64,000 nucleotides of DNA, taken from positions 36,916 through 100,915 of IMG/VR virus record IMGVR_UViG_3300045988_101454, one strand, 5' to 3'. Shown here one piece after another: positions 1 to 45,690 of this stretch. Under the pieces are notes generated by a model that saw only the letters and a program-made list of their open reading frames with translations, was not told the DNA's origin and made no database searches. A program made the translations under genes and the position numbers. The first letter of the stretch is position 1, and every line of letters begins with the position of its first letter. Source of the DNA: a virus.

Positions 1-158
1 TCCTCATGCTTGTTTTCCAGATTGCGGAGATTCTTTACTACTCTTTTATAGCCTCTGGAAAAACGACGTATTTTTAGTTTCATAGCCTCGTTTTCGGCTA
101 CCAACTCTCCATAACGCCTCGCATCTGCAACACGCTTTTTCCATTCCTGATGTTTCAT
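1..158 (-). CDS. hypothetical protein, N-terminal part only (runs off window start)
   Basis: ATG at 156-158 on minus strand, frame open to position 1; MKHQEWKKRVADARRYGELVAENEAMKLK...; too short for ORF track. Confidence 0.3.
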   Translation of the reverse strand, partial: MKHQEWKKRVADARRYGELVAENEAMKLKIRRFSRGYKRVVKNLRNLENKHE

Positions 159-181
159 TGTCTCTATTGTTTATGTTTTTT

Positions 182-349
182 TTAATTATACAACATACTC
201 ATTAATGCCGCAGCCCTTCTCTTGTCGGTAAATCCTTTGATGTTTACCCACTTGCCGAAGATGCAGTCTCCGACTCTTTTCTGAACCATCCAGACGGTCA
301 CGGGTATGCAACCGTTGTAGGCATCCATCGGAACAATTCTTAGTTTCAT
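182..349 (-). CDS. hypothetical small protein (55 aa)
   Basis: ATG 347-349, TAA 182-184; MKLRIVPMDAYNGCIPVTVWMVQKRVGD...; starts 3 nt after upstream stop. Confidence 0.3.
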   Translation of the reverse strand: MKLRIVPMDAYNGCIPVTVWMVQKRVGDCIFGKWVNIKGFTDKRRAAALMSMLYN

Positions 350-352
350 ATC

Positions 353-532
353 TTATTCAAATTTATATACTATATGCGGTGTGGTGTTGCCCAGTCCGTC
401 GCGAGGGTCGGCAAAGCAGCCAGGCGGTGAGGTTGTCACGGCATTGGCTATCTGCTTGCGCGGTCGGCTCTTTACGAGGCCCTTACCGTCCTTGCCGCTG
501 CGTACCCATCCGATGTAATACTTATCAGTCAT
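353..532 (-). CDS. mini-ORF (59 aa) resembling a C5-methyltransferase target-recognition domain
   Basis: ATG 530-532 overlaps TGA of the 529-1335 ORF (ATGA); ..KQIANAVTTSPPGCFADPRDGLGNTTPHIVYKFE*. Confidence 0.35.
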   Translation of the reverse strand: MTDKYYIGWVRSGKDGKGLVKSRPRKQIANAVTTSPPGCFADPRDGLGNTTPHIVYKFE

Positions 533-1335
533 CGGTCTGCGTTTTGCCCTGTCCCCAATCGTTCAATAGACTGGCATAATATCCCTTGTATTCTACCTGC
601 CTCTTGCTCTGCCCTCTTTAGAGCTTCGTCACGCTCATGCTCCAGCTTTATGCAATATTCAGTCAAGCGATTGTATTCTTTCTGCAAGGCATTGAAATCC
701 TCGCGCAGCTGCTCCAAATTGGGGTTTTCAGAATCCAATAACACAAGACGTTGCTTTTCCTTGTCCCATCTTTTCCCGATTTTCTCCACGGAATTGTTGA
801 GAAGTTTTTCTTCCGTAGGCGTAGCGTATCTCAGTTCGATGCTTTTTTCTTCTTCGCGTGTACCGCGAAGGTCAAGCTGAGCGTTAAAAGTAAGCACGTC
901 GCTGTTTTTGCATAAGCAGGCGTATGTCCTTATCTTGGGATAATCAGTAGATTCCACTCCGCTGAAAATCACAATGTAGGTCAGAATGTTGCCATCTTCA
1001 TACTTAATATCCATTGCCACGATGTCACCCGGCTGGAATTTGAGCACATTCCAACTTCGGTAAAGATGCGAGAGAAACAGCATACACTCTCCTTTGTCAA
1101 AACGCGCTATACGCCCGTTGTAAAGAAAAAAATGGTCGTATGCTTCATTCTCGTCAGGATGATGGAGGCCCAGCACAACACCCGAGGCGTTGAAATTATG
1201 CACCTCCATATAACCTAACAGAGGCGAATAAAGCATAGCGTCTACAGGCAAACTGTGGAGAAAAGCTGATAGTTTCTCATTCTCGAAAGTTTTTGCTCCC
1301 GTTTTAGGGATGCTTCTTGTTTCTTTTTGACTCAT
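529..1335 (-). CDS. hypothetical protein; paralog of 39355-39879
   Basis: 268-aa ORF. Shared blocks with the 39355-39879 product: FLHSLPVDAMLYSPLLGY vs FLRSLPKGTMLYCPLFGW, and RSWNVLKFQPGDIVAMD vs RSWDILDFNDGDIVAVD. C-terminal coiled coil. Confidence 0.6.
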   Translation of the reverse strand: MSQKETRSIPKTGAKTFENEKLSAFLHSLPVDAMLYSPLLGYMEVHNFNASGVVLGLHHPDENEAYDHFFLYNGRIARFDKGECMLFLSHLYRSWNVLKFQPGDIVAMDIKYEDGNILTYIVIFSGVESTDYPKIRTYACLCKNSDVLTFNAQLDLRGTREEEKSIELRYATPTEEKLLNNSVEKIGKRWDKEKQRLVLLDSENPNLEQLREDFNALQKEYNRLTEYCIKLEHERDEALKRAEQEAGRIQGILCQSIERLGTGQNADR

Positions 1336-1355
1336 AATGTCTCTATTTTAAATTG

Positions 1356-1507
1356 TTATTCATATTCTATCAATACAATGGTGTGCTGTCCGTGTTCATC
1401 GTAGAGCCCTGCCCATCCGTCGTAGCGGGCGGACAATGCCGTGGAATACCCCCCCGACGTGGGCAGAGCTGGGATGTGCGTTGTACGAAAGGGATTTGTT
1501 TAATCAT
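1356..1507 (-). CDS. TRD-like mini-ORF, frame ambiguous at a G7 run
   Basis: ATG 1505-1507 overlaps the upstream TAA (ATGATTAA). The conserved part ..PTSGGYSTALSARYDGWAGLYDEHGQHTIVLIEYE* (stop 1356-1358) is in another frame. The two frames meet at homopolymer 1449-1455. Confidence 0.25.
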
Positions 1508-1675
1508 ACGTTATCAATACCATATTGTCTTTGCCTACTGATGTGAGGGTGTTGGTTGTCCCCCCCCCCCGTTTATCTCCATTCGCTGAAAGAAGCGTCC
1601 GTTGGAGGGATGCTTGCGGTTGGACGGATTATCGGGGGCACGGCCTCGGAAGGCTGCTATGCGAAAGTCAATCAT
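1500..1675 (-). CDS. TRD-like mini-ORF interrupted at a G11 run
   Basis: ATG 1673-1675 overlaps the stop of 1668-1961 (ATGATTGA). As sequenced it stops at TAG 1535-1537. One extra G in run 1560-1570 would give ..EINGGGGTTNTLTSVGKDNMVLITYD* ending at 1500. Confidence 0.3.
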
Positions 1676-1961
1676 CCCCATTCCATTTTTCATCATCCAC
1701 AGTTCGTGCTATGAATATGCGATATGGGTTCTTCTTGTCTGTACTGGTTAGCTCTATTGCTTTTTCGATACTCTCCCTCGATACAAAGTCGCGTATCATC
1801 AACACTGCAAGGGCATCGAACTCGTCGTCCGACAAACAAACAGTATCTTCTCCTCGGCGGATAGTAACAAAGTCGCAAATAGTGTTGTGCCCGAAAGCCA
1901 CATCAACATCTTCATTACGTTCGAGGTCTCTGACTATTATTTTTTCTGCGTAAAGACTCAT
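1668..1961 (-). CDS. hypothetical protein (97 aa)
   Basis: ORF track; same-strand tight packing; no recognised motif. Confidence 0.5.
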   Translation of the reverse strand: MSLYAEKIIVRDLERNEDVDVAFGHNTICDFVTIRRGEDTVCLSDDEFDALAVLMIRDFVSRESIEKAIELTSTDKKNPYRIFIARTVDDEKWNGDD

Positions 1962-1988
1962 ATTTCTTTTTGTTTATTATTTGTACTA

Positions 1989-2165
1989 TTAATCGTAACA
2001 TATTGCAATCAGATTGTCAGTGGTGAGGGAAGTACCTATACATTGCATCCAACATCCTTGTCGCAGATGCCATTCCTTATCACGGAAGTCGTTAGTGCCG
2101 ATTAAGCGACGCACGGCTTTCGCGTGTTCGGTTCTGGCTTCGTGTATCAGATGAATGTTAAGCAT
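1989..2165 (-). CDS. TRD-like mini-ORF (58 aa)
   Basis: ATG 2163-2165 (the track uses an upstream GTG at 2213); MLNIHLIHEARTEHAKAVRRLIGTNDFRDKEW..CIGTSLTTDNLIAICYD*. Confidence 0.4.
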   Translation of the reverse strand: MLNIHLIHEARTEHAKAVRRLIGTNDFRDKEWHLRQGCWMQCIGTSLTTDNLIAICYD

Positions 2166-2329
2166 AATAGGTTGTCTTTTGTTACAGTTGTTATCGAATT
2201 GCTCCACGGCCACGGACTGGGGCGGTGATACTTTTCGCCGTATTTACACCCTCCGCGGTCGCCATGCTCACGACGGAAGGCTTTGGCTTCCTCGGTGCGG
2301 TAGTGGACGAGGACGGAACGGTCAATCAT
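2147..2329 (-). CDS. TRD-like mini-ORF (60 aa)
   Basis: ATG overlaps the upstream stop (ATGATTGA); ..VHYRTEEAKAFRREHGDRGG..WSNSITTVTKDNLLCLTFI*, resembling phage C5-MTase TRD motifs. Confidence 0.4.
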   Translation of the reverse strand: MIDRSVLVHYRTEEAKAFRREHGDRGGCKYGEKYHRPSPWPWSNSITTVTKDNLLCLTFI

Positions 2330-2471
2330 ACTCTATCAATATTTTCGGTTTATCCACGTCGTGACCCTTACCTCCCCCGGCTATGCACAAGGCTATGCCG
2401 TGTGGTGACACGATGATGCCGTTCTGCGAGGGGCTGTAGGAGCCAAGGATGATGGGGCGAGGGTTGTTCAT
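2322..2471 (-). CDS. TRD-like mini-ORF (49 aa)
   Basis: ATG 2469-2471 overlaps the upstream TGA (ATGA); MNNPRPIILGSYSPSQNGIIVSPHGIALCIAGGGKGHDVDKPKILIEYD*. Confidence 0.4.
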   Translation of the reverse strand: MNNPRPIILGSYSPSQNGIIVSPHGIALCIAGGGKGHDVDKPKILIEYD

Positions 2472-2635
2472 AATTCTACTGCTACATAATAGTGGTTACG
2501 ACTGCTCACTCCAGCTTGAATGGTGTAGATGATACCCCTCCCGAATTGCTTGTTCTAGGTGTCTATCCATACGGCATGAGAGGGGCGGAAACCACGTTTG
2601 TACATTATTTCTAAGCGAGCGTTCTTGTTAAGCAT
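2468..2635 (-). CDS. TRD-like mini-ORF with in-frame TAG
   Basis: ATG 2633-2635 (ATGCTTAA overlap); MLNKNARLEIMYKRGFRPSHAVWIDT[TAG 2555-2557]NKQFGRGIIYTIQAGVSSRNHYYVAVEL*; no ATG after the TAG. Confidence 0.3.
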
Positions 2636-2641
2636 ATTCAA

Positions 2642-2764
2642 TCAGTACCCCTCCAGTTTTGTTGACAAGGTTAGGGTGGGGTATATTCCTTTAGTACCGC
2701 AGATGTTGCCATCAAAACCGGACTTCCACTTGTCGTAATAAATGTTGCCAATCTTTTCAATCAT
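2642..2764 (-). CDS. TRD-like mini-ORF (40 aa as sequenced)
   Basis: MIEKIGNIYYDKWKSGFDGNICGTKGIYPTLTLSTKLEGY*. A +1 change in the GGGG run would give ..KLEGVLIEYA*, ending at 2628 and overlapping the next ATG. Confidence 0.3.
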   Translation of the reverse strand: MIEKIGNIYYDKWKSGFDGNICGTKGIYPTLTLSTKLEGY

Positions 2765-2912
2765 ATTCTACTATTACTGCCGTTGCTGCCCTGCCTCCCG
2801 TTGGCTTAATGAAATTCACCAAAGAATTGCGTTGGTACTGCGACTTAACGCATCGACATAACGCGGGAGAGGTAGAGACACTATCAGGGTTTAATGCTTT
2901 TATAAAAACCAT
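2757..2912 (-). CDS. TRD-like mini-ORF (51 aa)
   Basis: ATG 2910-2912 overlaps the upstream TAA (TAATG); MVFIKALNPDSVSTSPALCRCVKSQYQRNSLVNFIKPTGGRAATAVIVEYD*. Confidence 0.35.
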   Translation of the reverse strand: MVFIKALNPDSVSTSPALCRCVKSQYQRNSLVNFIKPTGGRAATAVIVEYD

Positions 2913-3037
2913 TATTCAAACTCATACAATACTACTGCCATTGGGTAATGGGCGAGCGTGAGGATGTTGGTAGGTCCGATAGCCTCGTAGCGTGTGGTTA
3001 TGGTTGCCGCACAACATCCGTCAGTAACATTCACCAT
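2912..3037 (-). CDS. TRD-like mini-ORF (41 aa from first ATG)
   Basis: MVNVTDGCCAATITTRYEAIGPTNILTLAHYPMAVVLYEFE*. The frame is contiguous with the upstream MTase fragment across TAA 3086-3088. Confidence 0.3.
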   Translation of the reverse strand: MVNVTDGCCAATITTRYEAIGPTNILTLAHYPMAVVLYEFE

Positions 3038-3085
3038 CAGTCCGCTACCCCATTCAGACGGAATGGAGGTGCGACGTGGGTCAGC

Positions 3086-3574
3086 TTACACTCCATCCTT
3101 CTTCCTCTCCATATTTTCTTTGAACAATTCCTCAAATCCCTCGAATGGGAACGTGTGGTAATTGCAGAACGATTTCCAATAGCTATCAAACACGAGTCGC
3201 ATACCCTCTATACTATCCGCCAATTCGTCAAGCTCCATATCCCATCCGTTGATGGTGTTTATGAGGTTTTGTAGCCACGTCTTGAGGAACATTGCCGCCT
3301 CGTGTGTCGGTGGCAGGTCGAACTGAAGGAATAGGGCGTTGTCAGAGTCGTTGGTCGTGAGGAACTTGCTCACGGCATCGTCCTTGAGGAAATAGCGGCC
3401 GGACACTTCCTCTTCGAGCACGTCTTCCAGTCGGGTAAGTAGCTCGAAGGGTTCGGGAAACTGGTAGTCGAAGGCCACGTCACGGCGCATGGAGAGGCAG
3501 AACACCCTGTCGCGGTTTTGTGGCACGCCGTAGTTCTAGTCGTTGTAGTGGGTTTGTGGGGAGTCTTGGTTTTG
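3086..3574 (-). pseudogene. C5-cytosine DNA methyltransferase fragment starting at motif VIII
   Basis: ..THYND[TAG 3536-3538]NYGVPQNRDRVFCLSMRRDVAFDYQFPEP..GRYFLKDD. The QxRxR motif and following blocks are typical of Dcm-type enzymes. No motifs I, IV or VI upstream (TAA at 3575-3577) and no motifs IX or X downstream. Confidence 0.65.
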
Positions 3575-3598
3575 TTAAAGTTCATGGGGGTTGGTGTT

Positions 3599-4153
3599 TT
3601 ATCGTCTTACTTCCAGCCATGTGTTACAGCGACCGATCCCAAACTTTGCAGCCACCGCACAAAAACTCTTGTCGTGATGACCAGACCGACAAGTCCCTAA
3701 GTCAGCACAGGTATCACAGCCGAAATCCATATAATCTGGATGATACCATACCTTGTCGCCAATCTCACGGATATAGCCTCTCTTTGTATCTACCACCAAG
3801 GTTCTTCCGACGGAATTTCTTTTGGGTTTATTCACAACAACCTTATACCGATTGTTTTTCTTCCTTACGACATGACATTCATTACGCATCGACCATCTCG
3901 GGTCAAAAACACGGAAGTCAATGCGCCACTTTTTGGGAAAATGGAACTTCTTCGGGTCGCAATAGTTGGAAAGTACTTTGCGGTCAGTAGAAACAATCTC
4001 TTCCCAGTTGTCACAACAACGAAGTACGTCAACCCTCCATCCTATGCGACGCTGTACTATATCTAACAGCGATGGATAATTACGCGGCTTCTCCCAGATT
4101 CCTCTAAAGTAAAGATTGTATCTGTCAAGCAGCACCTTGTTTCTTGCTTTCAT
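3599..4153 (-). CDS. hypothetical protein (184 aa from first ATG)
   Basis: ORF track 3599-4234 uses a TTG; ATG at 4151-4153; Cys/His-rich C-terminus; no recognised family. Confidence 0.5.
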   Translation of the reverse strand: MKARNKVLLDRYNLYFRGIWEKPRNYPSLLDIVQRRIGWRVDVLRCCDNWEEIVSTDRKVLSNYCDPKKFHFPKKWRIDFRVFDPRWSMRNECHVVRKKNNRYKVVVNKPKRNSVGRTLVVDTKRGYIREIGDKVWYHPDYMDFGCDTCADLGTCRSGHHDKSFCAVAAKFGIGRCNTWLEVRR

Positions 4154-4295
4154 AGTCTTTATAAATTCTTTTATATTGTTAATGTTTTCGCATTGAGCTG
4201 AAATCTTTGTTTCACCAATATGCTCTTTGAGCAAAATACTCTTTTAAGGATAGATAACTACGCTTGTGAAAACGCATTTTCATCTGACTGGGATT

Positions 4296-4433
4296 TTAGT
4301 GTCTATGCTGACGTTTTCTTGCCAAACGAATACTTGCACCAAAGACACAATATCCTCCATTCACTTTCACTAAATTTTCCGAATCAAACGAAATTGTGTA
4401 CTCGTAAGTACGTTCTTTTATATTTGCTGCCAT
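4296..4433 (-). CDS. hypothetical small protein (45 aa)
   Basis: ATG 4431-4433, TAA 4296-4298; MAANIKERTYEYTISFDSENLVKVNGGYCVFGASIRLARKRQHRH. In frame with the upstream YopX ORF (TAG-CGT-ATG). Confidence 0.35.
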   Translation of the reverse strand: MAANIKERTYEYTISFDSENLVKVNGGYCVFGASIRLARKRQHRH

Positions 4434-4436
4434 ACG

Positions 4437-4904
4437 CTATTCATCTTTGAGGTTCAACTTCTCTTGCCATTCTGGGTCGTGTATATCACCGACAATCTCA
4501 AAGTCCTCAAGTTTCTGTTGCGTGATTCCGTCAGAGATGCCATCAGAGATGCCACGCACAGCGGATTTCGGGTTTTTGACACAGGTGAGAAAAAACATCG
4601 CCTCTTCATCACTCCACCCTATAATGCCAAAGTAATTGTCACGCGCACCATCCTCCATGCGACTGAATGGGTATTCGTCCGAGCGAAGAAGATCGCCCTC
4701 ATAAATCTCCTTACCGTTCTTGTCGAGGTAGCCGGTGAACTGGCAGACGGTGCGAGGGTCAACCTTGTAGGGGATGTTTCTATTCAACATACTTTCCTTT
4801 TGCCTATCCTCGATAATGTATGTGTTATCATTCTCCTCGTAGAAGTAACCACAAGTCCATTCTTTATTATCAAGGCGTTTAGCCTTAAACTTGATTGTTC
4901 TCAT
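4437..4904 (-). CDS. YopX-family phage protein
   Basis: MRTIKFKAKRLDNKEW..GYF...QFTGYLDKNGKEIYEGDLL...EIVGDIHDPEW, typical YopX blocks; ends in TAG. Confidence 0.75.
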   Translation of the reverse strand: MRTIKFKAKRLDNKEWTCGYFYEENDNTYIIEDRQKESMLNRNIPYKVDPRTVCQFTGYLDKNGKEIYEGDLLRSDEYPFSRMEDGARDNYFGIIGWSDEEAMFFLTCVKNPKSAVRGISDGISDGITQQKLEDFEIVGDIHDPEWQEKLNLKDE

Positions 4905-6613: not shown

Positions 6614-6970
6614 TTACGTCGTTTCACTTAAATCCTTACAAATCAAATCAGATAGAAGATTGTCCTTTTCCTCCACCTCCTTCAACGACTGTTCTATCAT
6701 TGCCCTGCATACAGACGGGTCGAGTGCCGGAAGTTTATGGTCTATTGCATTTGCGGTTTTTGGTGGAGCGAATGGATCCTTTATTAGTGAAAAGCAGACA
6801 ACATCCGCACGACTCATTATGTTGGCAATGGCATCCTCGATGGAGTCGAATTTGCCCATAAAGACTTGTCCAGGGGAGAGTTCCACTAAAAAACATTTCT
6901 CTGTGGTGCGGTCCTTGCCGAGCATTACGATGCAGTCGGGACGATTGCGACGATTTACTTTTATATACAT
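6614..6970 (-). CDS. hypothetical protein (118 aa)
   Basis: ORF track; start is in frame with the upstream ASCH ORF (TAG-CTT-ATG). Confidence 0.5.
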   Translation of the reverse strand: MYIKVNRRNRPDCIVMLGKDRTTEKCFLVELSPGQVFMGKFDSIEDAIANIMSRADVVCFSLIKDPFAPPKTANAIDHKLPALDPSVCRAMIEQSLKEVEEKDNLLSDLICKDLSETT

Positions 6971-6973
6971 AAG

Positions 6974-7579
6974 CTAATCTATTAATTCAAAATCATAAAC
7001 GAATACATAAGGGTTGCTCTCCCAAGTGCCTTTGCCAGAGATGCGGTCGATGAGGGATGCGTAGGCATCCTGCGGAGTGCGAAACCAGGAATTGGCAAGA
7101 CCGTGATACCAATAAGTCGTACCTTCAAGTCCTACGTCTCCAGCCATCCAGAGACCTTCCTTTAAGCAATCCTCGCTTTTTATGTCTTGCAAACGCTCAA
7201 TACGAATATTGGTTATACGGATATGATGGGGCATATCTTCGGCACGAACAAACATTTTGTTATTCCAACCTATTTCCTCTTTGCGAGCCATACAGTTTGC
7301 CCAATCTACTTGAGGCGTAATGTCGGCATACGATTGCGCAATAGCTACGATCTCGTTCTTTTGATAGCGCATCACACTGCGATTGTAGATGAATCGCTCT
7401 CTTAAATCAGGATTTAATAAAAATCGAAAGTAAATAGTAAAGAGCGCCCCCAACGTATCGAACTTCTTGATGACTTTAAGCATCTCCTGGTTGGTGATAA
7501 TTCGCCTTGTCTGCGTCTTTCGCTTTGCAAGCACGGCATCAGTCAGTCCGTACTTGTCGTTGAACATAATCTTTTGCAT
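6974..7579 (-). CDS. ASCH-domain-like protein
   Basis: N-terminus MQKIMFNDKYGLTDAVLAKRKTQTRR resembles the ASCH fold signature (K-x-Q-T-R-R); ends in TAG. Confidence 0.45.
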   Translation of the reverse strand: MQKIMFNDKYGLTDAVLAKRKTQTRRIITNQEMLKVIKKFDTLGALFTIYFRFLLNPDLRERFIYNRSVMRYQKNEIVAIAQSYADITPQVDWANCMARKEEIGWNNKMFVRAEDMPHHIRITNIRIERLQDIKSEDCLKEGLWMAGDVGLEGTTYWYHGLANSWFRTPQDAYASLIDRISGKGTWESNPYVFVYDFELID

Positions 7580-7600
7580 ACTCTATATTTTCGTTAATAA
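7580..7600 (-). promoter_or_regulatory. conserved 5' leader, copy 4 of 4
   Basis: TTATTAACGAAAATATAGAGT directly upstream of ATG 7579. Confidence 0.45.
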
Positions 7601-7627
7601 GCCATTGGATTTTTAGCTTTTCCCTTT

Positions 7628-8704
7628 TCACTTCGCGTTGCGAATCTTCTCCGTTTCCTCATTCTCCTTCGAGATTCGCTCCAGATGCTCCAATACAAGC
7701 GAATACGACTGATTGTTCACCTGGTCTTCGGTGAGCGAGGCGTATTTCTGCATAGTGGCGATGGTGGCGGTGTATATCTCAAGTGGGGTGGATGGTGGTT
7801 GCGTGCGGTCGATCTTCTGCACCTTGAACACATGAGGATAACGCCGTGAGAGGGTTTGCATCATGCCGGTCCACCAGAAGAGAATGGGTTGCCACTGGTG
7901 GTCGGGGAAGTGGCGGAAGAGTGGAGCTTGGGTGTCGAACTGACGCACGTCGTAATGGAAATCATGTACCTTCAGGTTGGTGTTGGTGTCGATGAAGTCG
8001 ATGCGACGGTTGAAGATTGTGGCAAGGAACATAGAGCGTGCCTGGTCTACGCTGTCGGCTTGCTGCGCTATCTGTTCGGCTGTGAACTTGCCCATCTTCT
8101 TCATCTTGACAAGGTTGTTGTCGAGCGAGGTGTTTTGTCCCATGAGATCATGGGCAAAGCGAAACTGCTGCCATGAGAAGCCGTCCATATCCTGCGCAGG
8201 ACCTTCAAACTCAATCTTGCGACGTAGCAGACCACGCTTGTTGCGAAGGCGAAGGGTGGGGTAGGGAAAGCGAGTGAGGTGAGCACCACGCTCGTTGTCG
8301 AGCCAGTCGAGCAGTCCGGCACCAGAGGCAAGATACTCAGCCGAGTTACGGTCGTCGGTCTTCGGCTTTGGCGTTAGCCAGTAGTTGAGTTGCCATAGGT
8401 AGACGGGGAAAGTTTCGTCCTTCTGCTGCTTGCGGCGGAAGAAACGGTTGCGACGGATTGTGGTGGAGAGTCGGCAAGTGTAGTGTTGCTCTTCGAGAGG
8501 TTTCGAATCGTCTATGCCTTCCACTATCTCTATGCCCGACAGGACAAAGAAGCACGCTATCTTGACATTGCGCATGTCGAAGCGGTGATAACGGTCGGCT
8601 CGCTGTATCTGTTCAAGCATTATGCGAGAGACGAGCTCCAACTGCTCTGTGCTGCACTCGTTCCATGAGCGGGGCAGCGTAAGGTTGATTTTCTGTTGTG
8701 ACAT
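7628..8704 (-). CDS. hypothetical protein (358 aa from first ATG)
   Basis: The track ORF starts at a TTG (8860). ATG at 8702-8704 (MSQQKINLTLPRSW) is the likelier start. Confidence 0.55.
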   Translation of the reverse strand: MSQQKINLTLPRSWNECSTEQLELVSRIMLEQIQRADRYHRFDMRNVKIACFFVLSGIEIVEGIDDSKPLEEQHYTCRLSTTIRRNRFFRRKQQKDETFPVYLWQLNYWLTPKPKTDDRNSAEYLASGAGLLDWLDNERGAHLTRFPYPTLRLRNKRGLLRRKIEFEGPAQDMDGFSWQQFRFAHDLMGQNTSLDNNLVKMKKMGKFTAEQIAQQADSVDQARSMFLATIFNRRIDFIDTNTNLKVHDFHYDVRQFDTQAPLFRHFPDHQWQPILFWWTGMMQTLSRRYPHVFKVQKIDRTQPPSTPLEIYTATIATMQKYASLTEDQVNNQSYSLVLEHLERISKENEETEKIRNAK

Positions 8705-31283: not shown

Positions 31284-31847
31284 ATGAAAATAGGACTCAT
31301 AGACGTGGACGGACGACACGGCAAAAAGAAATGGGGAGCTACGATATACCCTAACGTGGCTCTCGGCAAGATTGCCCGTTGGCACACGATACGGGGCGAT
31401 GAAGTGGAATGGGCTCAATCTACCGACCTTTTCGACAGGCATCATTACGACATACTGTATGCCAGTAAGGTCTTTAACTTTTCGCCCGACATCGACTTTC
31501 GGCAGTTCTCCTACGACCGGTTGGAGAAGGGTGGCACTGGCTACGACATCTATAAGCGTCTGCCCGACGAGATAGACAAACTCCAGCCTCTCTACGCAAT
31601 GTACCCTTGGCTACCGAAAAATCAAGCCGTAGGCAAACTTACCGAGGGGTGCCCTAACAAATGCTTCTGGTGTGTCGTTCCGAAAAAGGAGGGACGCATA
31701 CGTCCTTACATGGATATAGAAGAAATTGCCATCGAGGGGCGCACGCATGTTGTGCTGATGGACAACAACATTCTTGCGGCGGGTGACTATGCAAAGGAAC
31801 AGCTCAAAAAGATAATCGACCTTGGTCTGCATATAGACTTCAATTAG
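31284..31847 (+). CDS. radical SAM protein, N-terminal part (ends at in-frame TAG)
   Basis: GCPNKCFWCVVPKKEG is a CxxxCxxC cluster motif; TAG at 31845-31847 is in frame with 31851-32303. Confidence 0.7.
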   Translation: MKIGLIDVDGRHGKKKWGATIYPNVALGKIARWHTIRGDEVEWAQSTDLFDRHHYDILYASKVFNFSPDIDFRQFSYDRLEKGGTGYDIYKRLPDEIDKLQPLYAMYPWLPKNQAVGKLTEGCPNKCFWCVVPKKEGRIRPYMDIEEIAIEGRTHVVLMDNNILAAGDYAKEQLKKIIDLGLHIDFN

Positions 31848-32376: not shown

Positions 32377-33066
32377 ATGATAACAGAGAATTTACAGAAA
32401 AAGATTGATCGTGCCATCCGTCTGCTTCAAGGCATACAGAAGTTATACGATGGCGAGATAGAGATAGCCTATTCGGGCGGTAAGGACTCCGACGTGATCC
32501 TTCAACTGGCGAAAGAGTCCGGCATCAAGTATCGAGCCATATACAAGAATACGACCATCGACTCGCCAGGCACGTTGGGGCACGTCAGGGAAATGGGAGT
32601 GGAGATACTGCGGGCAAGATTCCCTTTTTTTCATCTCGTGGCGCAGAAAGGATTTCCATCTCGCTATAGTCGTTTCTGTTGTGAAAAACTGAAGGAATAT
32701 AAGGTGCTCAACAAAAGCATTATCGGCGTGCGCAAGGCTGAGAGCTGGAAACGAAACGAAAGATACAACGAGCCAACAAAGTGCCGATACTACGGAGCGA
32801 AGAAAGAGGAAAATCACGTAGAACAGATTTATCCTATTCTGGAATGGACCGATGAGGACGTGCGCAACTTCATCATAGACAGAAAGTTGAAACTCGCACC
32901 CATTTATTACAATTCGGGGGGGGCAAATCGACGTGTCGAAACGTCTCGGCTGCATGTGCTGCCCTCTCGCCTCAAGGCGCAAGCGCATTATCGAGTTTCA
33001 GAAATATCCCAAGATAGCAAAGGCTTATCTCCGTGCGGGGCAACGATTTATGGAAACGCATCCTGA
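32377..33066 (+). CDS. PAPS-reductase-family (PP-loop) protein, N-terminal part; frame breaks at a G8 run
   Basis: AYSGGKDSDV PP-loop. After G8 (32916-32923) the sequence turns non-protein-like, and the real continuation is in the next frame. Confidence 0.8.
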   Translation: MITENLQKKIDRAIRLLQGIQKLYDGEIEIAYSGGKDSDVILQLAKESGIKYRAIYKNTTIDSPGTLGHVREMGVEILRARFPFFHLVAQKGFPSRYSRFCCEKLKEYKVLNKSIIGVRKAESWKRNERYNEPTKCRYYGAKKEENHVEQIYPILEWTDEDVRNFIIDRKLKLAPIYYNSGGANRRVETSRLHVLPSRLKAQAHYRVSEISQDSKGLSPCGATIYGNAS

Positions 33067-33563: not shown

Positions 33564-34142
33564 ATGAACAACAACATAAAAAGAAAGGACTGGGTGGGCG
33601 GCTCGGCCGCTGTATTCAAGACGTTGGGCGCAAGCAACCATACGGATGCGGATAGACAGCGTGAGGATTACTATGCCACAGAACCGAAAGCGACGGAATG
33701 GCTGTGCAAACTGGAGCATTTTGAGGGCCGGATATTGGAGCCTTCGTGTGGCGAGGGTCACATGAGCCGGGTGTTGGAGGCAGCAGGATATGAGGTGGTG
33801 AGCCGCGACCTTGTGGATAGAGGTTACGGCGAGGTGGCTGACTTCCTCTCAATAGACAACTTGGCGTGGGACGGAAACATCATCACCAATCCGCCCTACA
33901 AATTCGCACAGCAGTTCGTTGTGAAGGCTCTGAGCATCATCCCCGAAGGAAAGAAAGTGGCGATGTTCCTTAAGCTAACTTTCCTCGAAGGCAAGGCTCG
34001 ACGCACTCTCTTCCGTTCTACCCCCCCCCATTCGTGTTTGGGTAAGCTCGTCACGACTGAAATGCGCTCCAAACGGCGACTTCAACGCTATTGTTGGCAG
34101 CGCAACGGCTTACGCATGGTTTGTATGGGAGAAAGGATATAA
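33564..34142 (+). CDS. N6-adenine DNA methyltransferase (NPPY type); frame breaks at a C9 run
   Basis: EPSCGEGHM (motif I) and IITNPPYKF (motif IV). After C9 (34021-34029) the conserved end ..IRVWVSSSRLKCAPNGDFNAIVGSATAYAWFVWEKGYKGETTVKWFN* continues in the +1 frame to TGA 34171-34173. Confidence 0.75.
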   Translation: MNNNIKRKDWVGGSAAVFKTLGASNHTDADRQREDYYATEPKATEWLCKLEHFEGRILEPSCGEGHMSRVLEAAGYEVVSRDLVDRGYGEVADFLSIDNLAWDGNIITNPPYKFAQQFVVKALSIIPEGKKVAMFLKLTFLEGKARRTLFRSTPPHSCLGKLVTTEMRSKRRLQRYCWQRNGLRMVCMGERI

Positions 34143-34193: not shown

Positions 34194-35096
34194 ATGATAG
34201 AACTGAATAAGATATATAATGAAGACTGCCAGGAAGGGATGATAGCCATTCAAGATAATTCCATAGACCTTGCGGTTGCAGACCCTCCTTACTGGAAAGT
34301 AATTGACGAGCAATGGGATTATCAATGGAGAACTGAGAGCGACTATGTGGAATGGTGCATTAAATGGATGAAGGAGGTTGCACGAGTTTTGCGTATAGGT
34401 GGAACATTCTACTGCTTTGGTTATTTCAGAATCTTAGTCTTGCTCATTCCTTACCTTGAATCACTTGGACTTGAATTAAGACAGCAAATTGTTATTGATA
34501 AGGGTATGCGTGTCGTAAGCGGACGGGCTACACGAAGATACAAGATGTTTCCTAACGTAACGGAAAGCGTACTCTTTATAATCAAAGACAACAAGAAATT
34601 TGTAAAGCCATTCCTCAAAGAACGCCAAGAAGCATTAGGACTGACTGCCAAGCAAATCAATGAAGCGTTGGGGGTTAAGTCTAATGGCGGTGGCATGTGG
34701 AGTATTTACACCGGCAATAACGTATGTGAGCAATTTCCTACGAAGGAGCTCTGGGACAAACTTTCCCATGTACTCTCCTTTGATTGTCCGTATGAAAAAG
34801 TCGCTCAGACATTCAATCCGCAAATAGGAGTTACTGACGTGTGGTCTGATATTAACTTTTATGAAGAAAAACATATCCATCCCACTCAAAAGCCGTTAAA
34901 GCTAATCCGTAGACTGATAAAAGCCAGCAGTAACGAAGGTGATATTGTCTTAGACCCGTTTTCGGGAGTGGGAACAACGCAGGTAGGCTGCGTACAGACC
35001 AAGCGCAACTTCATCGGCTTCGAGCTCAACAAGGAGTATTACGACAAGGCTTGTAAGCGCATCAAGTTGGAGCAAGCGCAGTTCACGCTGTTCTGA
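34194..35096 (+). CDS. N6/N4 DNA methyltransferase (DPPY type)
   Basis: LAVADPPYW (motif IV), HPTQKPLKLIRRLI, and the C-terminal FSGVGTT SAM motif. Confidence 0.8.
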   Translation: MIELNKIYNEDCQEGMIAIQDNSIDLAVADPPYWKVIDEQWDYQWRTESDYVEWCIKWMKEVARVLRIGGTFYCFGYFRILVLLIPYLESLGLELRQQIVIDKGMRVVSGRATRRYKMFPNVTESVLFIIKDNKKFVKPFLKERQEALGLTAKQINEALGVKSNGGGMWSIYTGNNVCEQFPTKELWDKLSHVLSFDCPYEKVAQTFNPQIGVTDVWSDINFYEEKHIHPTQKPLKLIRRLIKASSNEGDIVLDPFSGVGTTQVGCVQTKRNFIGFELNKEYYDKACKRIKLEQAQFTLF

Positions 35097-35163: not shown

Positions 35164-35949
35164 ATGATAGAACTGAATAAGATATATAATGAAGACTGCC
35201 TGGAAGGCATGAAAAGGATTCTGGACGGAAGTGTGGATTGCATTGTGTGCGATTTGCCGTATGGTACTACTGCTTGTGCTTGGGATAGCGTAATTCCATT
35301 TGACAAGTTGTGGGAGCAATACAAGAGAATCATAAAGAATACTGGTGCTATAGTCTTGTTTAGTCAGCAACCTTTTACGTCTGCGCTTATCATGTCGAAC
35401 ATAGATATGTATAAGTATAATTGGATATGGAAAAAGGAGAGTGGTACTAATTACTTAAATTCCCATCATCAACCATTGAAGATTACAGAAGATATATGTG
35501 TTTTTGGAATGGCAGCAACAACTGAAAGCAAGAAAAAAAAGTATATGGAGTATCATCCTCAAATGATTAAGGGGTACAAGCCTTATGCCTGCAAAAATGG
35601 CATTCAACGAAAAGACGCTGCAATGGTACGAGGAAAATGTCAAGCGCAGACTGGAGGAGCTGTGACAGTAAGTGATGGTTCTCGTTTCCCTATAAATTTA
35701 CTCGAATTTATTCGGGATAAGGAGAAGATCCATCCCACCCAAAAGCCAGTTGCTCTTATTCAGTACCTCATCCGTACCTACTCCAACGAGGGCGACACCA
35801 TATTAGACAACTGTATGGGCAGCGGCACCACCGCCATTGCAGCTATCCGTGAAAAGCGCAACTTCATCGGCTTCGAGCTCAACAAGGAGTATTACGACAA
35901 GGCTTGCAAGCGCATCAAAATGGAGCTGGCGCAGCCTACTCTCTTCTGA
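35164..35949 (+). CDS. N6/N4 DNA methyltransferase (D-L-P-Y variant); tandem paralog
   Basis: IVCDLPYG, HPTQKPVALIQYLI, CMGSGTT. The first 37 nt and about 65 nt of the 3' end are near-identical to 34194-35096. Confidence 0.8.
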   Translation: MIELNKIYNEDCLEGMKRILDGSVDCIVCDLPYGTTACAWDSVIPFDKLWEQYKRIIKNTGAIVLFSQQPFTSALIMSNIDMYKYNWIWKKESGTNYLNSHHQPLKITEDICVFGMAATTESKKKKYMEYHPQMIKGYKPYACKNGIQRKDAAMVRGKCQAQTGGAVTVSDGSRFPINLLEFIRDKEKIHPTQKPVALIQYLIRTYSNEGDTILDNCMGSGTTAIAAIREKRNFIGFELNKEYYDKACKRIKMELAQPTLF

Positions 35950-43487: not shown

Positions 43488-44096
43488 TTAGAACGGCAAA
43501 TCCTCGTCTTCCGCCGGATTATAACCGCCAAGGTCTACGCCGCTTGATTCTGCCGGTGCCACATAGCCGGTGGCTGCACCTGCTACGCCTACATTCGGTG
43601 TAGCATAAGGCGACGGCTGCTGTGTGGGCTGTGGTTGGTAGAGCATAGCCAGTCGCTTGTTCAGACGCTGACGGATAGCCTTAAAGAGGTGGGTGTTCTC
43701 GTCGGTTGGGTCTTGGCTCACGATGTCAGGGTCACGTTCCTTGTTTGCCTCCTTCACCTGCTCCACGAGCTTAGGGTATTTCTTTACCGCTACCTTGACG
43801 AAATCTACAGAGAAAGACATCTGCATTTCGTGTGTGGGAACAGTAACGTTTGTGTCGCCACGCTCCATTGCCGAACGACGCACGGTGTTTTTGTAGTTCT
43901 CGTTCAGTGGCCAGATATTCACACGCATCTTCGCCAGTGTGCGGTCGGGCTTCTGCGGATGCTGCTCCACTTTTATTTCGTTCAAGTCTGCCGGGATGCA
44001 GACGTACACTCGTTCGGGGTTGTTCTTGTCGATACCCTTGAATACCTGCGCTCCGTTTAGAGAGAGCAGGTCAATGTTGCCGTTGTAACTTGCCAT
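43488..44096 (-). CDS. putative ssDNA-binding protein with an SSB-type acidic tip
   Basis: Pro/Gln-rich linker followed by ..NPAEDEDLPF* (compare bacterial SSB ..DDDIPF); lies next to dnaN. Confidence 0.45.
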   Translation of the reverse strand: MASYNGNIDLLSLNGAQVFKGIDKNNPERVYVCIPADLNEIKVEQHPQKPDRTLAKMRVNIWPLNENYKNTVRRSAMERGDTNVTVPTHEMQMSFSVDFVKVAVKKYPKLVEQVKEANKERDPDIVSQDPTDENTHLFKAIRQRLNKRLAMLYQPQPTQQPSPYATPNVGVAGAATGYVAPAESSGVDLGGYNPAEDEDLPF

Positions 44097-44135: not shown

Positions 44136-44370
44136 TTAATATAATCTCGCCCTGCTATCGCTCATATCATCCATCGTGCGCACCTTATACCATTTCTTCA
44201 CTCGGTTCTTCGGCGCATACACCTTTGAAAGCCCGATAAAGCTGCTGCAAGCGAGGTGCAGAGGACTGATGTTGCCGCCGAACAGCGGGGAACTCTGCTC
44301 CCTGCAACTACATTTTATGTGGTTGTAAGAAATGCAGTTTTCGCATCTGGGGGGGGGTGAATGTTCGCAT
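44136..44370 (-). CDS. small Cys-rich protein interrupted at a C9 run
   Basis: ATG 44368-44370 gives MRTFTPP, then homopolymer 44349-44357. The protein-like frame RCENCISYNHIKCSCREQSS...RARLY* (stop 44136-44138) needs one base fewer. Confidence 0.4.
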
Positions 44371-44844: not shown

Positions 44845-45690
44845 CTACTCCTCCACAGCCAACTTCAACTTTTCCTGCTCGATATACTCATTGCAGTACT
44901 CAGCAGGGACATAGGTATGTGCATAGAACTGTGTGGCTCCAATCACGCGAAGAGTCTCGCGCTCGTTCAGTATCGTGCGATAATAGTGTTTGATATAATC
45001 GAACACGATGTTCTTGGCTGTTACCACATCATAAGCCCATACCACGAACATATCCTTTGTATGTACGCCAGCTTTCGACCTGGTATTCTCTGGCTCATAC
45101 ATCTCGGTATCAATGAACGAAGCCTTAACCTTGAACGGCTCTTTTACAGGAGCATCTGCATCTTTTTCGAGTTCAGCTTCCTCCTGTTCAATGTCTTCTT
45201 TTGTGCGACCGATAAAATGAATACCTTCTATTATCTCCGACTTAGCGACATATATTGACTCGGCACCCTCTGTCTTAAAAATTTCGTTTACAGCGCCCTC
45301 TGCGTAATCGGCTGCAAGATTTTGTGCTCCTCGCAAAGAATCGCTGCGCACAATAAGTACGGCGTTATCTCCCAAACCATTGCGCACCATCACCTTGATT
45401 GGCATAATCCTATTGAACAAAGTTGACTCCTTAGCACGATGCGGAACGTCCGTTATCACTACCTCCTCGATTTTATTATTTTTCAATTCTTCGAGAACTT
45501 TGTCAGTAACCATACATCCTCGATGCGCAATATTCTCAGCACGCTCTATAACGACGTTCTGCTGAGTGTCCTCGTCAATAAAGGTCTCGTTCCATACTCG
45601 GTTTGCTGGCTCCGCCAAATAATGACCTACTGCTTCTGCTACTGGCACTACCTTAGTCTGATAATCCTTTCTAAGCATTATTTTCTTCAT
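44845..45690 (-). CDS. hypothetical protein (281 aa)
   Basis: ORF track. Confidence 0.55.
   Translation of the reverse strand: MKKIMLRKDYQTKVVPVAEAVGHYLAEPANRVWNETFIDEDTQQNVVIERAENIAHRGCMVTDKVLEELKNNKIEEVVITDVPHRAKESTLFNRIMPIKVMVRNGLGDNAVLIVRSDSLRGAQNLAADYAEGAVNEIFKTEGAESIYVAKSEIIEGIHFIGRTKEDIEQEEAELEKDADAPVKEPFKVKASFIDTEMYEPENTRSKAGVHTKDMFVVWAYDVVTAKNIVFDYIKHYYRTILNERETLRVIGATQFYAHTYVPAEYCNEYIEQEKLKLAVEE

Follow-up and report, generated by a model that had tools for sequence, protein, structure and literature searches.

Stand-alone target-recognition-domain genes in a phage genome as the probable remains of a split multispecific C5-methyltransferase

We examined an array of very short genes in a 64,000-nucleotide stretch of gut-phage DNA (positions 36,916 to 100,915 of IMG/VR record IMGVR_UViG_3300045988_101454). 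The whole stretch is referred to as the window; coordinates are positions in this 64-kb window, and the array was read on the minus strand of 1-4500. Between 353 and 3547 of that strand, the remnant of a C5-cytosine DNA methyltransferase (C5-MTase), beginning at motif VIII, is followed by ten mini-ORFs (short open reading frames) of 41-60 amino acids (aa). Taken together, the data make it probable that the locus is what remains of a split multispecific C5-MTase in which the mini-ORFs are target-recognition domains (TRDs), the copy in the window is a relic, and intact relatives assemble the enzyme non-covalently. A preliminary description of this DNA had reported about ten mini-ORFs beside a truncated Dcm-type fragment, and all of the elements that it listed were located on the minus strand. 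These are given below together with the interspersed genes and the deletion junction (nt, nucleotides), the units appearing under the TRD designation for which we argue; L numbers designate phage loci used for comparison.

3550..3594, minus strand: filler at the deletion junction, ~45 nt of unrelated sequence, from local alignments of 3680..3480 to L001, L010, L009 and L007
3086..3549, minus strand: C5-MTase core remnant (circularly permuted family), residues 289-435 only
2912..3037, minus strand: TRD mini-gene A, 41 aa, ...AATITTRYE...VVLYEFE; intact, 92-98% identical in L010, L023 and L011
2757..2912, minus strand: TRD mini-gene B, 51 aa, ...PTGGRAATAVIVEYD; intact, 88-100% identical in L010, L023 and L011
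2628..2764, minus strand: TRD mini-gene C, GIYPTLTLST..GGVLIEYA; frame broken by loss of 1 nt from the A run that immediately precedes the tail
2468..2635, minus strand: TRD mini-gene D, ...IIYTIQAGVSSRNHYYVAVEL; in-frame TAG at 2555-2557, where L023, L011 and L029 have TAC (Tyr)
2322..2471, minus strand: TRD mini-gene E, 49 aa, ...GIALCIAGGGKGHDVDKPKILIEYD; intact, 84-100% identical in 18 loci, dN/dS (ratio of nonsynonymous to synonymous substitution) 0.08
2147..2329, minus strand: TRD mini-gene F, 60 aa, RTEEAKAFRRE...SNSITTVTKDNLL; intact, 73-95% identical in 15 loci, dN/dS 0.22
1989..2165, minus strand: TRD mini-gene G, 58 aa, RTEHAKAVRR...IGTSLTTDNLIAICYD; intact paralogue of F, 83-95% identical in 13 loci, dN/dS 0.17
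1668..1961, minus strand: 97-aa gene without TRD features, inside the array; its stop overlaps the start of unit H by 8 nt
1500..1675, minus strand: TRD mini-gene H, ...FRGRAPDNPSNR...QRMEINGGG-TTNTLTSVGKDNMVLITYD; frameshifted at a G11 tract (1560-1570)
1356..1507, minus strand: TRD mini-gene I, ...RRGG-YSTALSARYDGWAGLYDEHGQHTIVLIEYE; frameshifted at a G7 tract (1449-1455), family dN/dS 0.13
529..1335, minus strand: 268-aa gene between units I and J; present or absent at that spot in relatives (synteny matrix)
353..532, minus strand: TRD mini-gene J, 59 aa, ...RKQIANAVTTSPPG...NTTPHIVYKFE; intact and last of the array, 78-97% identical in >20 loci, dN/dS 0.19

The partner enzyme was found intact in related phages. 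Twenty-nine related loci, on phage contigs of roughly 50-100 kb, were retrieved from IMG/VR with two neighbouring proteins. In L001, a 435-aa ORF lies inside the array, and its motifs, read directly, follow the order IX-X-I-IV-VI-VIII: IX (IRKLTPKECFRLMG), X (QAGNSIVVDV), I (FSGYDSQ), IV (SSPCQD), VI (QENV) and VIII (GVPQNRDRVF). The core starts 16 residues before motif IX with an invariant N-terminal hairpin (MITKLNF..IKSYA), and motif VIII is followed by a mostly helical tail of ~145 aa from which a TRD-like segment is absent. The relatives' core possesses all of the conserved motifs and the large-domain fold of C5-MTases (PF00145, E = 7e-50), and its predicted fold matched those of M.MpeI, M.HhaI and M.HaeIII (Foldseek matches 4dkj, 2zcj and 1dct, probability 1.00). 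The core is circularly permuted, with motifs IX and X ahead of motif I, and becomes collinear with the profile when re-ordered: a natural core-unit fusion protein, P0002, matched the Pfam profile in two stretches in its native form and in one, covering profile positions 23-322 of 324, once residues 1-118 had been moved to the C-terminal end.

The core ORF is intact in 19 of the loci. Its family comprised 7,961 metagenomic matches at E ≤ 1e-10, mostly of 432-433 aa and on contigs of up to ~105 kb, and some of its clusters held >1,000 members. Source annotations name the core only as 'cytosine specific methyltransferase [Caudoviricetes sp.]' or '[Prevotella sp.]', and the mini-genes are unremarked. 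The presumed split multispecific system is widespread in one family of gut phages of ~90-105 kb, whose hosts are possibly Prevotella. TRD mini-genes occur on both sides of the core, the last upstream unit ending ~10 nt before the core ATG in some genomes. The commonest arrangement is an unfused core with an array. A core-J fusion with zero free units occurs in L031, and in L030 a core-E fusion has free units on both sides, such that fused and free units coexist in one genome.

Several variants of the core family were also observed. P0006, a metagenomic protein of 843 aa, is a core-J fusion whose catalytic motif IV (SSPC|...|QD) is the exact insertion point of an intein that carries a LAGLIDADG endonuclease (PF14528, PF13403, PF14890). 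In the cluster (P0129-P0138) of P0014, a TRD-less core (DAU84186.1), many calls of 171-220 aa cover no more than the C-terminal part of the enzyme, with starts that fall past motif VI or inside motif IV, and sit on contigs of up to 104 kb; disruption of the core thus seems common in natural populations beyond this window. At the same genomic position in L026 and L027 (~6743-7793), a different C5 methylase, whose motifs are in canonical order (I-VIII-TRD-IX-X) and whose TRD appears to be broken by a frameshift, is followed by relics of units I and J. The array site looks like a hotspot of methylase replacement.

The evidence that the units are TRDs comes from proteins in which they are physically joined to a methylase and from homology to known TRDs. 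A search with the concatenated window units yielded six proteins only, all of which are the permuted enzyme with one C-terminal unit located after motif VIII: J in P0001 and P0003-P0006, and E in P0002. In the un-permuted fusion, the unit falls between motifs VIII and IX. Repaired unit H shared 52% identity over 50 residues (E = 3e-15) with the TRD directly before motif IX in the β-subunit of Javan179, a Streptococcus phage with a two-gene methylase (L044, 1492-2770). The split enzyme of Dulem virus 40 (L043, PP511379.1, 2519-4459) has a β-subunit made up of ~seven tandem TRDs and then motifs IX and X, and seven unit families align to these consecutive TRDs. More specifically, K/d2, C/P, H, u3L, u4 and N matched successive segments of the Dulem β-subunit with pairwise E-values of 6e-9 to 5e-4, unit C at residues 56-84 and unit H at residues 94-136 (E = 6e-9). 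An exhaustive search of 1.84 billion representatives with unit E returned 54 clusters at 50% identity, nearly all of them stand-alone proteins of 35-111 aa, and P0188 contains an E-like TRD segment ahead of motifs IX and X. An artificial query consisting of unit E and the core N-terminus aligned weakly across the junction to Dcm (3lx6). A resemblance of unit E to the TRD of M.HhaI could not be confirmed. Together, the C-terminal fusions, the un-permuted Pfam match, and the alignments of H to Javan179 and of the unit families to Dulem virus 40 indicate that the units are homologous to the TRDs of classical multispecific enzymes. We therefore consider it very likely that they are TRD modules, as the preliminary description had proposed in calling them isolated TRDs, each with a putative methylation specificity of its own.

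One of the families aligned to Dulem virus 40 occurs outside the window:

L001 8566-8883 and equivalents: unit u3L, 105 aa, …LRIRQATEQGYTDCP…NALTAASGGICVFVEL, with a hydrophobic tail and a Dulem TRD match (E = 1.6e-5)

G8 tracts and frameshifts are frequent in u3L, which the deletion described below has removed from the window. As a further observation on Javan179, its α-subunit ends in a TRD-like ...GGAVIELIE tail.

The mini-ORFs are real genes rather than debris. In tblastn searches, the window units recurred at 80-100% aa identity in at least 19 other contigs, exceeding the identity of the flanking 211-aa gene (70-88%). Relatives carry 9-15 mini-ORFs per locus, drawn from at least 24 sequence families, with conserved order and with whole cassettes present or absent. 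Unit boundaries are constant across divergent genomes, and each unit has its own ATG and stop, usually in another frame than its neighbour. Nei-Gojobori dN/dS was 0.08-0.36 in 13 of 14 families and 0.59 in the remaining one, at pS (proportion of synonymous differences) of 0.1-0.7; the families of units C and B, for example, gave 0.10 and 0.36, respectively. With overlap codons excluded, pooled dN/dS was 0.17 in the annotated frame versus 1.52 and 1.77 in the shifted frames. The preliminary description had argued for selection rather than random decay, and this is borne out by the contrast between frames.

The junctions between units are likewise conserved. In the window, most units end in [ILV][ILV]-E-Y-[DE] and most starts overlap the preceding stop, by 8 nt at B/C, C/D, E/F, 97-aa/H and H/I, by 4 nt at D/E and between the 268-aa gene and J, by 1 nt at A/B and by 19 nt at F/G. 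Unit A is in frame with the core remnant, a single TAA lying between them. Among relatives, the overlap is exactly 8 nt in 28 of 38 adjacent unit pairs and reads ..GAA TAT GAn TrA, the Tyr and Asp/Glu codons holding the next ATG. The coupling of starts to stops noted previously was therefore confirmed in the window and found to extend to its relatives. Considered together, the recurrence, the dN/dS values and the 8-nt junctions exclude a random or decayed origin for the family. Unit A is paralogous to the upstream unit u5 of relatives (37% identity), and unit C is in frame in the alignment of L020, L006, L016, L023 and L011. More divergent relatives, whose cores are ~70% identical, have arrays with further TRD families and another unit order; relatives that lack the core retain 1-3 relic units only, and a TRD-like unit, P, is present in core-less L003-L005 and L008. 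A DNA search of window positions 1-4500 against GenBank phages gave no match, and the core, used as a protein query, retrieved no relatives of ≥60% identity.

We then compared the window copy with the intact genomes. The remnant contains motif VIII (GVPQNRDRVF), an F-x-FP..YFL segment and the helical C-terminal region. ORF 3086..3526 matched PF00145 (E = 7e-7) at profile positions 144-217 of 324, that is, from motif VIII onwards, in agreement with the starting point given in the preliminary description. The 435-aa L001 core had a sole tblastn match in the window, at 3535..3095, and a profile hidden Markov model (HMM; --max, six-frame translation) matched only 3535..3089, at profile positions 288-433. 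Neither tblastn with the full-length relative nor the HMM search detected further C5-MTase segments in the 64 kb, and motifs I (FxGxG), IV (PCQ), VI (ENV), IX and X belonging to the window's own fragment were not found there. The catalytic half and motifs IX and X, for which the preliminary description had recommended a search, were thus missing from the window, and no C5 core was found over the 10 kb that lie past window position 1. The same tblastn and profile searches ruled out a second C5 core in the rest of the window.

Intact genomes have ~2.3 kb that is missing here, from the stop of the 211-aa gene up to core residue 289. In relatives, this part holds the upstream TRD mini-genes and core residues 1-288, with motifs IX, X, I, IV and VI. 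Homology on the left stops just past the stop of the 211-aa ORF and resumes on the right within the core, at ~3549. The identical truncation occurs in an ENA scaffold with 100% identity over 11.3 kb, and in L034 this place is occupied by a different, larger deletion. Of the ten units, four are disrupted, one by a nonsense codon (D) and three by homopolymer frameshifts (C, H and I); the other six are intact. A second in-frame TAG lies in the remnant at 3536-3538, where relatives have AAG or AAA (Lys). No tRNA genes were found in the window, leaving no suppressor for the TAG in unit D. Recoding of TAG was ruled out, since relatives have TAC or AAG at these codons and the window contains no tRNA gene. 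The preliminary description had suggested that four units are gated by a TAG or a G run. Four units are indeed disrupted, but the TAGs are lineage-specific nonsense mutations rather than gates, the G runs are polymorphic tracts, and unit C carries a deletion in an A run. In view of the core deletion, the nonsense codon and the broken units, the window copy is most likely a recently orphaned, decaying relic array.

Poly-G tracts are enriched in the arrays. On the coding strand, 34 runs of G≥6 were counted in 32.5 kb of array versus 17 in 228 kb outside (odds ratio 14), and the same 32.5 kb contained no C runs. The tracts closely precede the T-x-T recognition element, with the following lengths across genomes.

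Unit H: G6, G7, G8 and G11, plus interrupted in-frame versions
Unit I: G5, G6, G7 and G8
Unit D: G7 and G8
Unit C: G5 and G6

In unit I, in-frame relatives have G5 or an interrupted G8, L018 and L019 have G6, and L009, L021 and L028 have G7. Between the window and L034, which are 98-99.9% identical, unit H changes from G11 to G8T, yielding an intact 57-aa ORF in L034, and unit I from G7 to G6. At least one unit is frameshifted in almost every genome. Coding-region homopolymer tracts whose length differs between close genomes and alters the frame are characteristic of contingency loci, and the pattern is consistent with such a phase-variable locus, switching being read from differences between genomes only. 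Homopolymer sequencing error was rejected as the sole cause of the frameshifts, as it leaves the strand-specific 14-fold enrichment and the in-frame interrupted variants unexplained, but it may account for individual tracts.

The permutation of the core suggests how such a system might work. It places both core termini at the canonical TRD insertion site, and the fused relatives indicate that a unit attached at these termini completes the protein. The mini-proteins would be made by termination-reinitiation, and a free unit would dock non-covalently where the N- and C-termini of the core meet, which is the canonical TRD site. The docking interface would consist of the shared [ILV][ILV]EY[DE] tail strand and the invariant core N-terminal hairpin. 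One core could then methylate many sequences, shielding phage DNA from many restriction systems, and poly-G slippage would toggle individual specificities on and off. The phage population would in this way hedge its bets, some hosts restricting unmethylated and others methylated DNA. We advance this model, in which a single TRD-less permuted core is programmed in trans by up to ~15 interchangeable, poly-G phase-variable subunits of 40-60 aa, as a tentative one; exchangeable specificity subunits had also been suggested in the preliminary description.

Several considerations weigh against this interpretation. We judge the chances of non-covalent assembly in the intact relatives to be about even. 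Conservation of the tail is confounded because its TAT-GAn codons also supply the next ATG. The AlphaFold2 model of the fused P0002 had a mean pLDDT (predicted local distance difference test) of 65, with values <50 in the TRD, and was uninformative for docking. In M.MpeI and M.SssI, engineered separation of the small domain from the permuted large domain gave inactive enzymes (PMC5944983). In the profile and structure comparisons that the preliminary description had recommended, Pfam returned zero methylase matches for each of the mini-ORFs, as expected for variable TRDs, and units E and C had no relevant match to solved structures among PDB sequences. The 16 loci in the enrichment test are mutually related, so their counts are not independent, and assembly error could lie behind some individual differences in tract length. 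Finally, the search for a second core covered the 64 kb and the 10 kb beyond position 1, and the other ~20 kb of a presumed ~90-kb genome could hold one.

Other explanations were weighed against the same data. The locus could be a decayed pseudogene, fragments of one former multi-TRD gene that are functional nowhere; the distant Dulem virus 40 carries homologous TRDs in one polypeptide, and the window has a deleted core and four broken units. The same boundaries nevertheless occur in at least 19 diverged genomes (pS 0.1-0.7), under a dN/dS of 0.17 as opposed to 1.5-1.8 in shifted frames, and homologues of unit E stand alone in the 54 clusters at 50% identity. The single intact multi-TRD ORF that, by the preliminary description's own account, would mark the array as decayed was present in no close relative; the ORFs were separate and under purifying selection throughout. 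At the level of the family, this explanation is largely refuted by the selection analysis, and we consider it extremely improbable. A core-independent function, with the units acting as DNA-binding decoys at restriction sites or as modulators of host MTases and the window array still at work, would account for the six of ten units that remain intact here despite loss of the core and for the persistence of TRD-like unit P in the core-less L003-L005 and L008. Arrays are nonetheless reduced to 1-3 relic units wherever the core is absent, and the deletion in the window looks recent, its units being up to 100% identical to those of core-bearing phages. Given the established structure of C5-MTases, moreover, specific DNA binding would be unlikely for a 45-60-aa fragment of a small domain that lacks motif IX and the catalytic domain. 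We regard this function as improbable.

Two further possibilities keep the core at the centre. Frameshifting or readthrough at the junctions, or polymerase slippage at G tracts, could produce core-TRD or poly-TRD fusions. The junctions are highly conserved in sequence, in-frame fusions of core and TRD occur naturally, in some database proteins two units are joined by a tract frameshift (P0140, P0143 and P0185), and unit A of the window shares the frame of the core remnant, one TAA apart. Such recoding is unlikely on balance, as there is no common slippery motif (the pre-stop codon is GAT, GAA, GAC or GCT and the stop TGA, TAA or TAG), the yield after at least ten successive shifts would be negligible, upstream units do not overlap the core but stand 10-140 nt from its start, and every unit has its own ATG. 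Somewhat less unlikely is a cassette reservoir in which only the core-fused TRD is active and the free units are a store moved in by recombination at shared junctions. Consistent with this, the fused variants differ in their unit (E or J), presence, absence and order vary cassette-wise between genomes, and ~12 nt are common to all unit junctions. Under that model, however, the thousands of unfused cores of 432-433 aa would be an enzyme without a specificity domain, and silent cassettes would not need their own starts and stops or overlaps of the co-translation type.

The neighbouring genes were also inspected. The 97-aa, 268-aa and 211-aa proteins, the units and the core remnant had no match in PHROGs, and the 97-aa and 268-aa proteins had none in Pfam. 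Members of the 97-aa family recur in arrays, lying inside or just upstream of them at variable positions (L001, L014, L018, L021, L023, L025 and L028), with two diverged copies in some genomes; the protein might be an accessory factor of the TRD system. Only five G/C runs of ≥7 occur in the 64 kb, four of them in genes of DNA-modification type, and a G9 run (44349-44357) falls between ORFs 43488-44096 and 44845-45690, where the sequence is apparently non-coding. A PAPS-reductase-domain gene at 32377-33066, plus strand (PF01507, E = 2e-10), contains a G8 tract at 32916-32923, past which the other frame reads ...RLGCMCCPLASRRKRIIEFQKYP, resembling the usual C-terminus of the family; a second DNA-modification gene therefore seems to be frameshifted at a tract. 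The gene at 33564-34142, plus strand, has a weak methyltransferase-domain match and a C9 run (34021-34029) beyond which a second frame continues (...AYAWFVWEKGYKGE), which may represent another homopolymer frameshift. Adjacent N6/N4 DNA methyltransferase genes at 34194-35096 and 35164-35949, plus strand (PF01555, E = 6e-43 and 3e-29), adjoin the PAPS-reductase gene and a weak radical-SAM match (31284-31847). The phage thus appears, from its gene content, to retain other DNA-modification capacity despite loss of the C5 core.

If the interpretation as a split multispecific C5-MTase is correct, it describes a new way to build a multispecific enzyme and helps explain how very abundant gut phages handle diverse host restriction. 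It would also provide a natural toolkit of ~50-aa specificity modules for a common core, useful for the engineering of targeted methylation, in which splits between the small and catalytic domains have failed so far (PMC5944983). The value of the window genome itself is evolutionary, as it captures an array soon after loss of its core; the interest is higher at the level of the phage family than for this defunct copy.

Among known enzymes, multispecific phage C5-MTases carry tandem TRDs within one polypeptide (PMC12707154). The present system is like the enzymes of Bacillus phages SPR, phi3T, rho11s and H2 in having several short TRDs per catalytic core, presumably for anti-restriction (PMC12707154). 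In the SPR/phi3T type and in the Dulem virus 40 β-subunit (XCD03591.1), the TRDs are in tandem in one polypeptide, between motifs VIII and IX and in canonical order, whereas here each TRD is its own ORF and the core is permuted and TRD-less. The plurality of TRDs is shared, with 9-15 units, from at least 24 families, for one core. TRDs are said, in work by Trautner et al. from 1996, to be roughly 40-50 aa, and the units here are 40-60 aa. In all natural permuted C5-MTases, the TRD is attached at the N-terminus (PMC5944983). Natural circular permutation is known from the 'type H' enzymes M.BssHII, M.Alw26I, M2.Eco31I, M.Esp3I and M2.BsaI; the break here lies between the TRD and motif IX, as a result of which fused relatives have a C-terminal TRD and most genomes encode it as a separate protein, setting the relatives' core apart from the M.BssHII-like type.

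M.EcoHK31I α/β is a naturally split C5-MTase. M.AquI α/β is another (PMC5944983). As in these two enzymes and that of Javan179, activity presumably requires separately translated pieces to come together; theirs, however, are two in number, with the TRD kept together with motifs IX and X or with only motif IX separate, and include neither a TRD-only subunit nor an array. Our literature search found no published reports of TRD-only genes, TRD arrays or a TRD-less permuted core. Within the literature searched, the TRD of C5-MTases always lies in a larger polypeptide, and stand-alone TRD arrays would be new. A parallel, by functional analogy only, is offered by Type I HsdS and the phasevarions, with their exchangeable specificity modules, shared catalytic subunit and homopolymer on/off switching. 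HsdS differs in that it serves N6-adenine methylation, is ≥400 aa, contains two TRDs, is cellular and has no homology to the units, which are viral and whose switching would follow from differences between genomes. If our interpretation holds, these arrays would be the first cytosine-MTase counterpart of the Type I HsdS principle.

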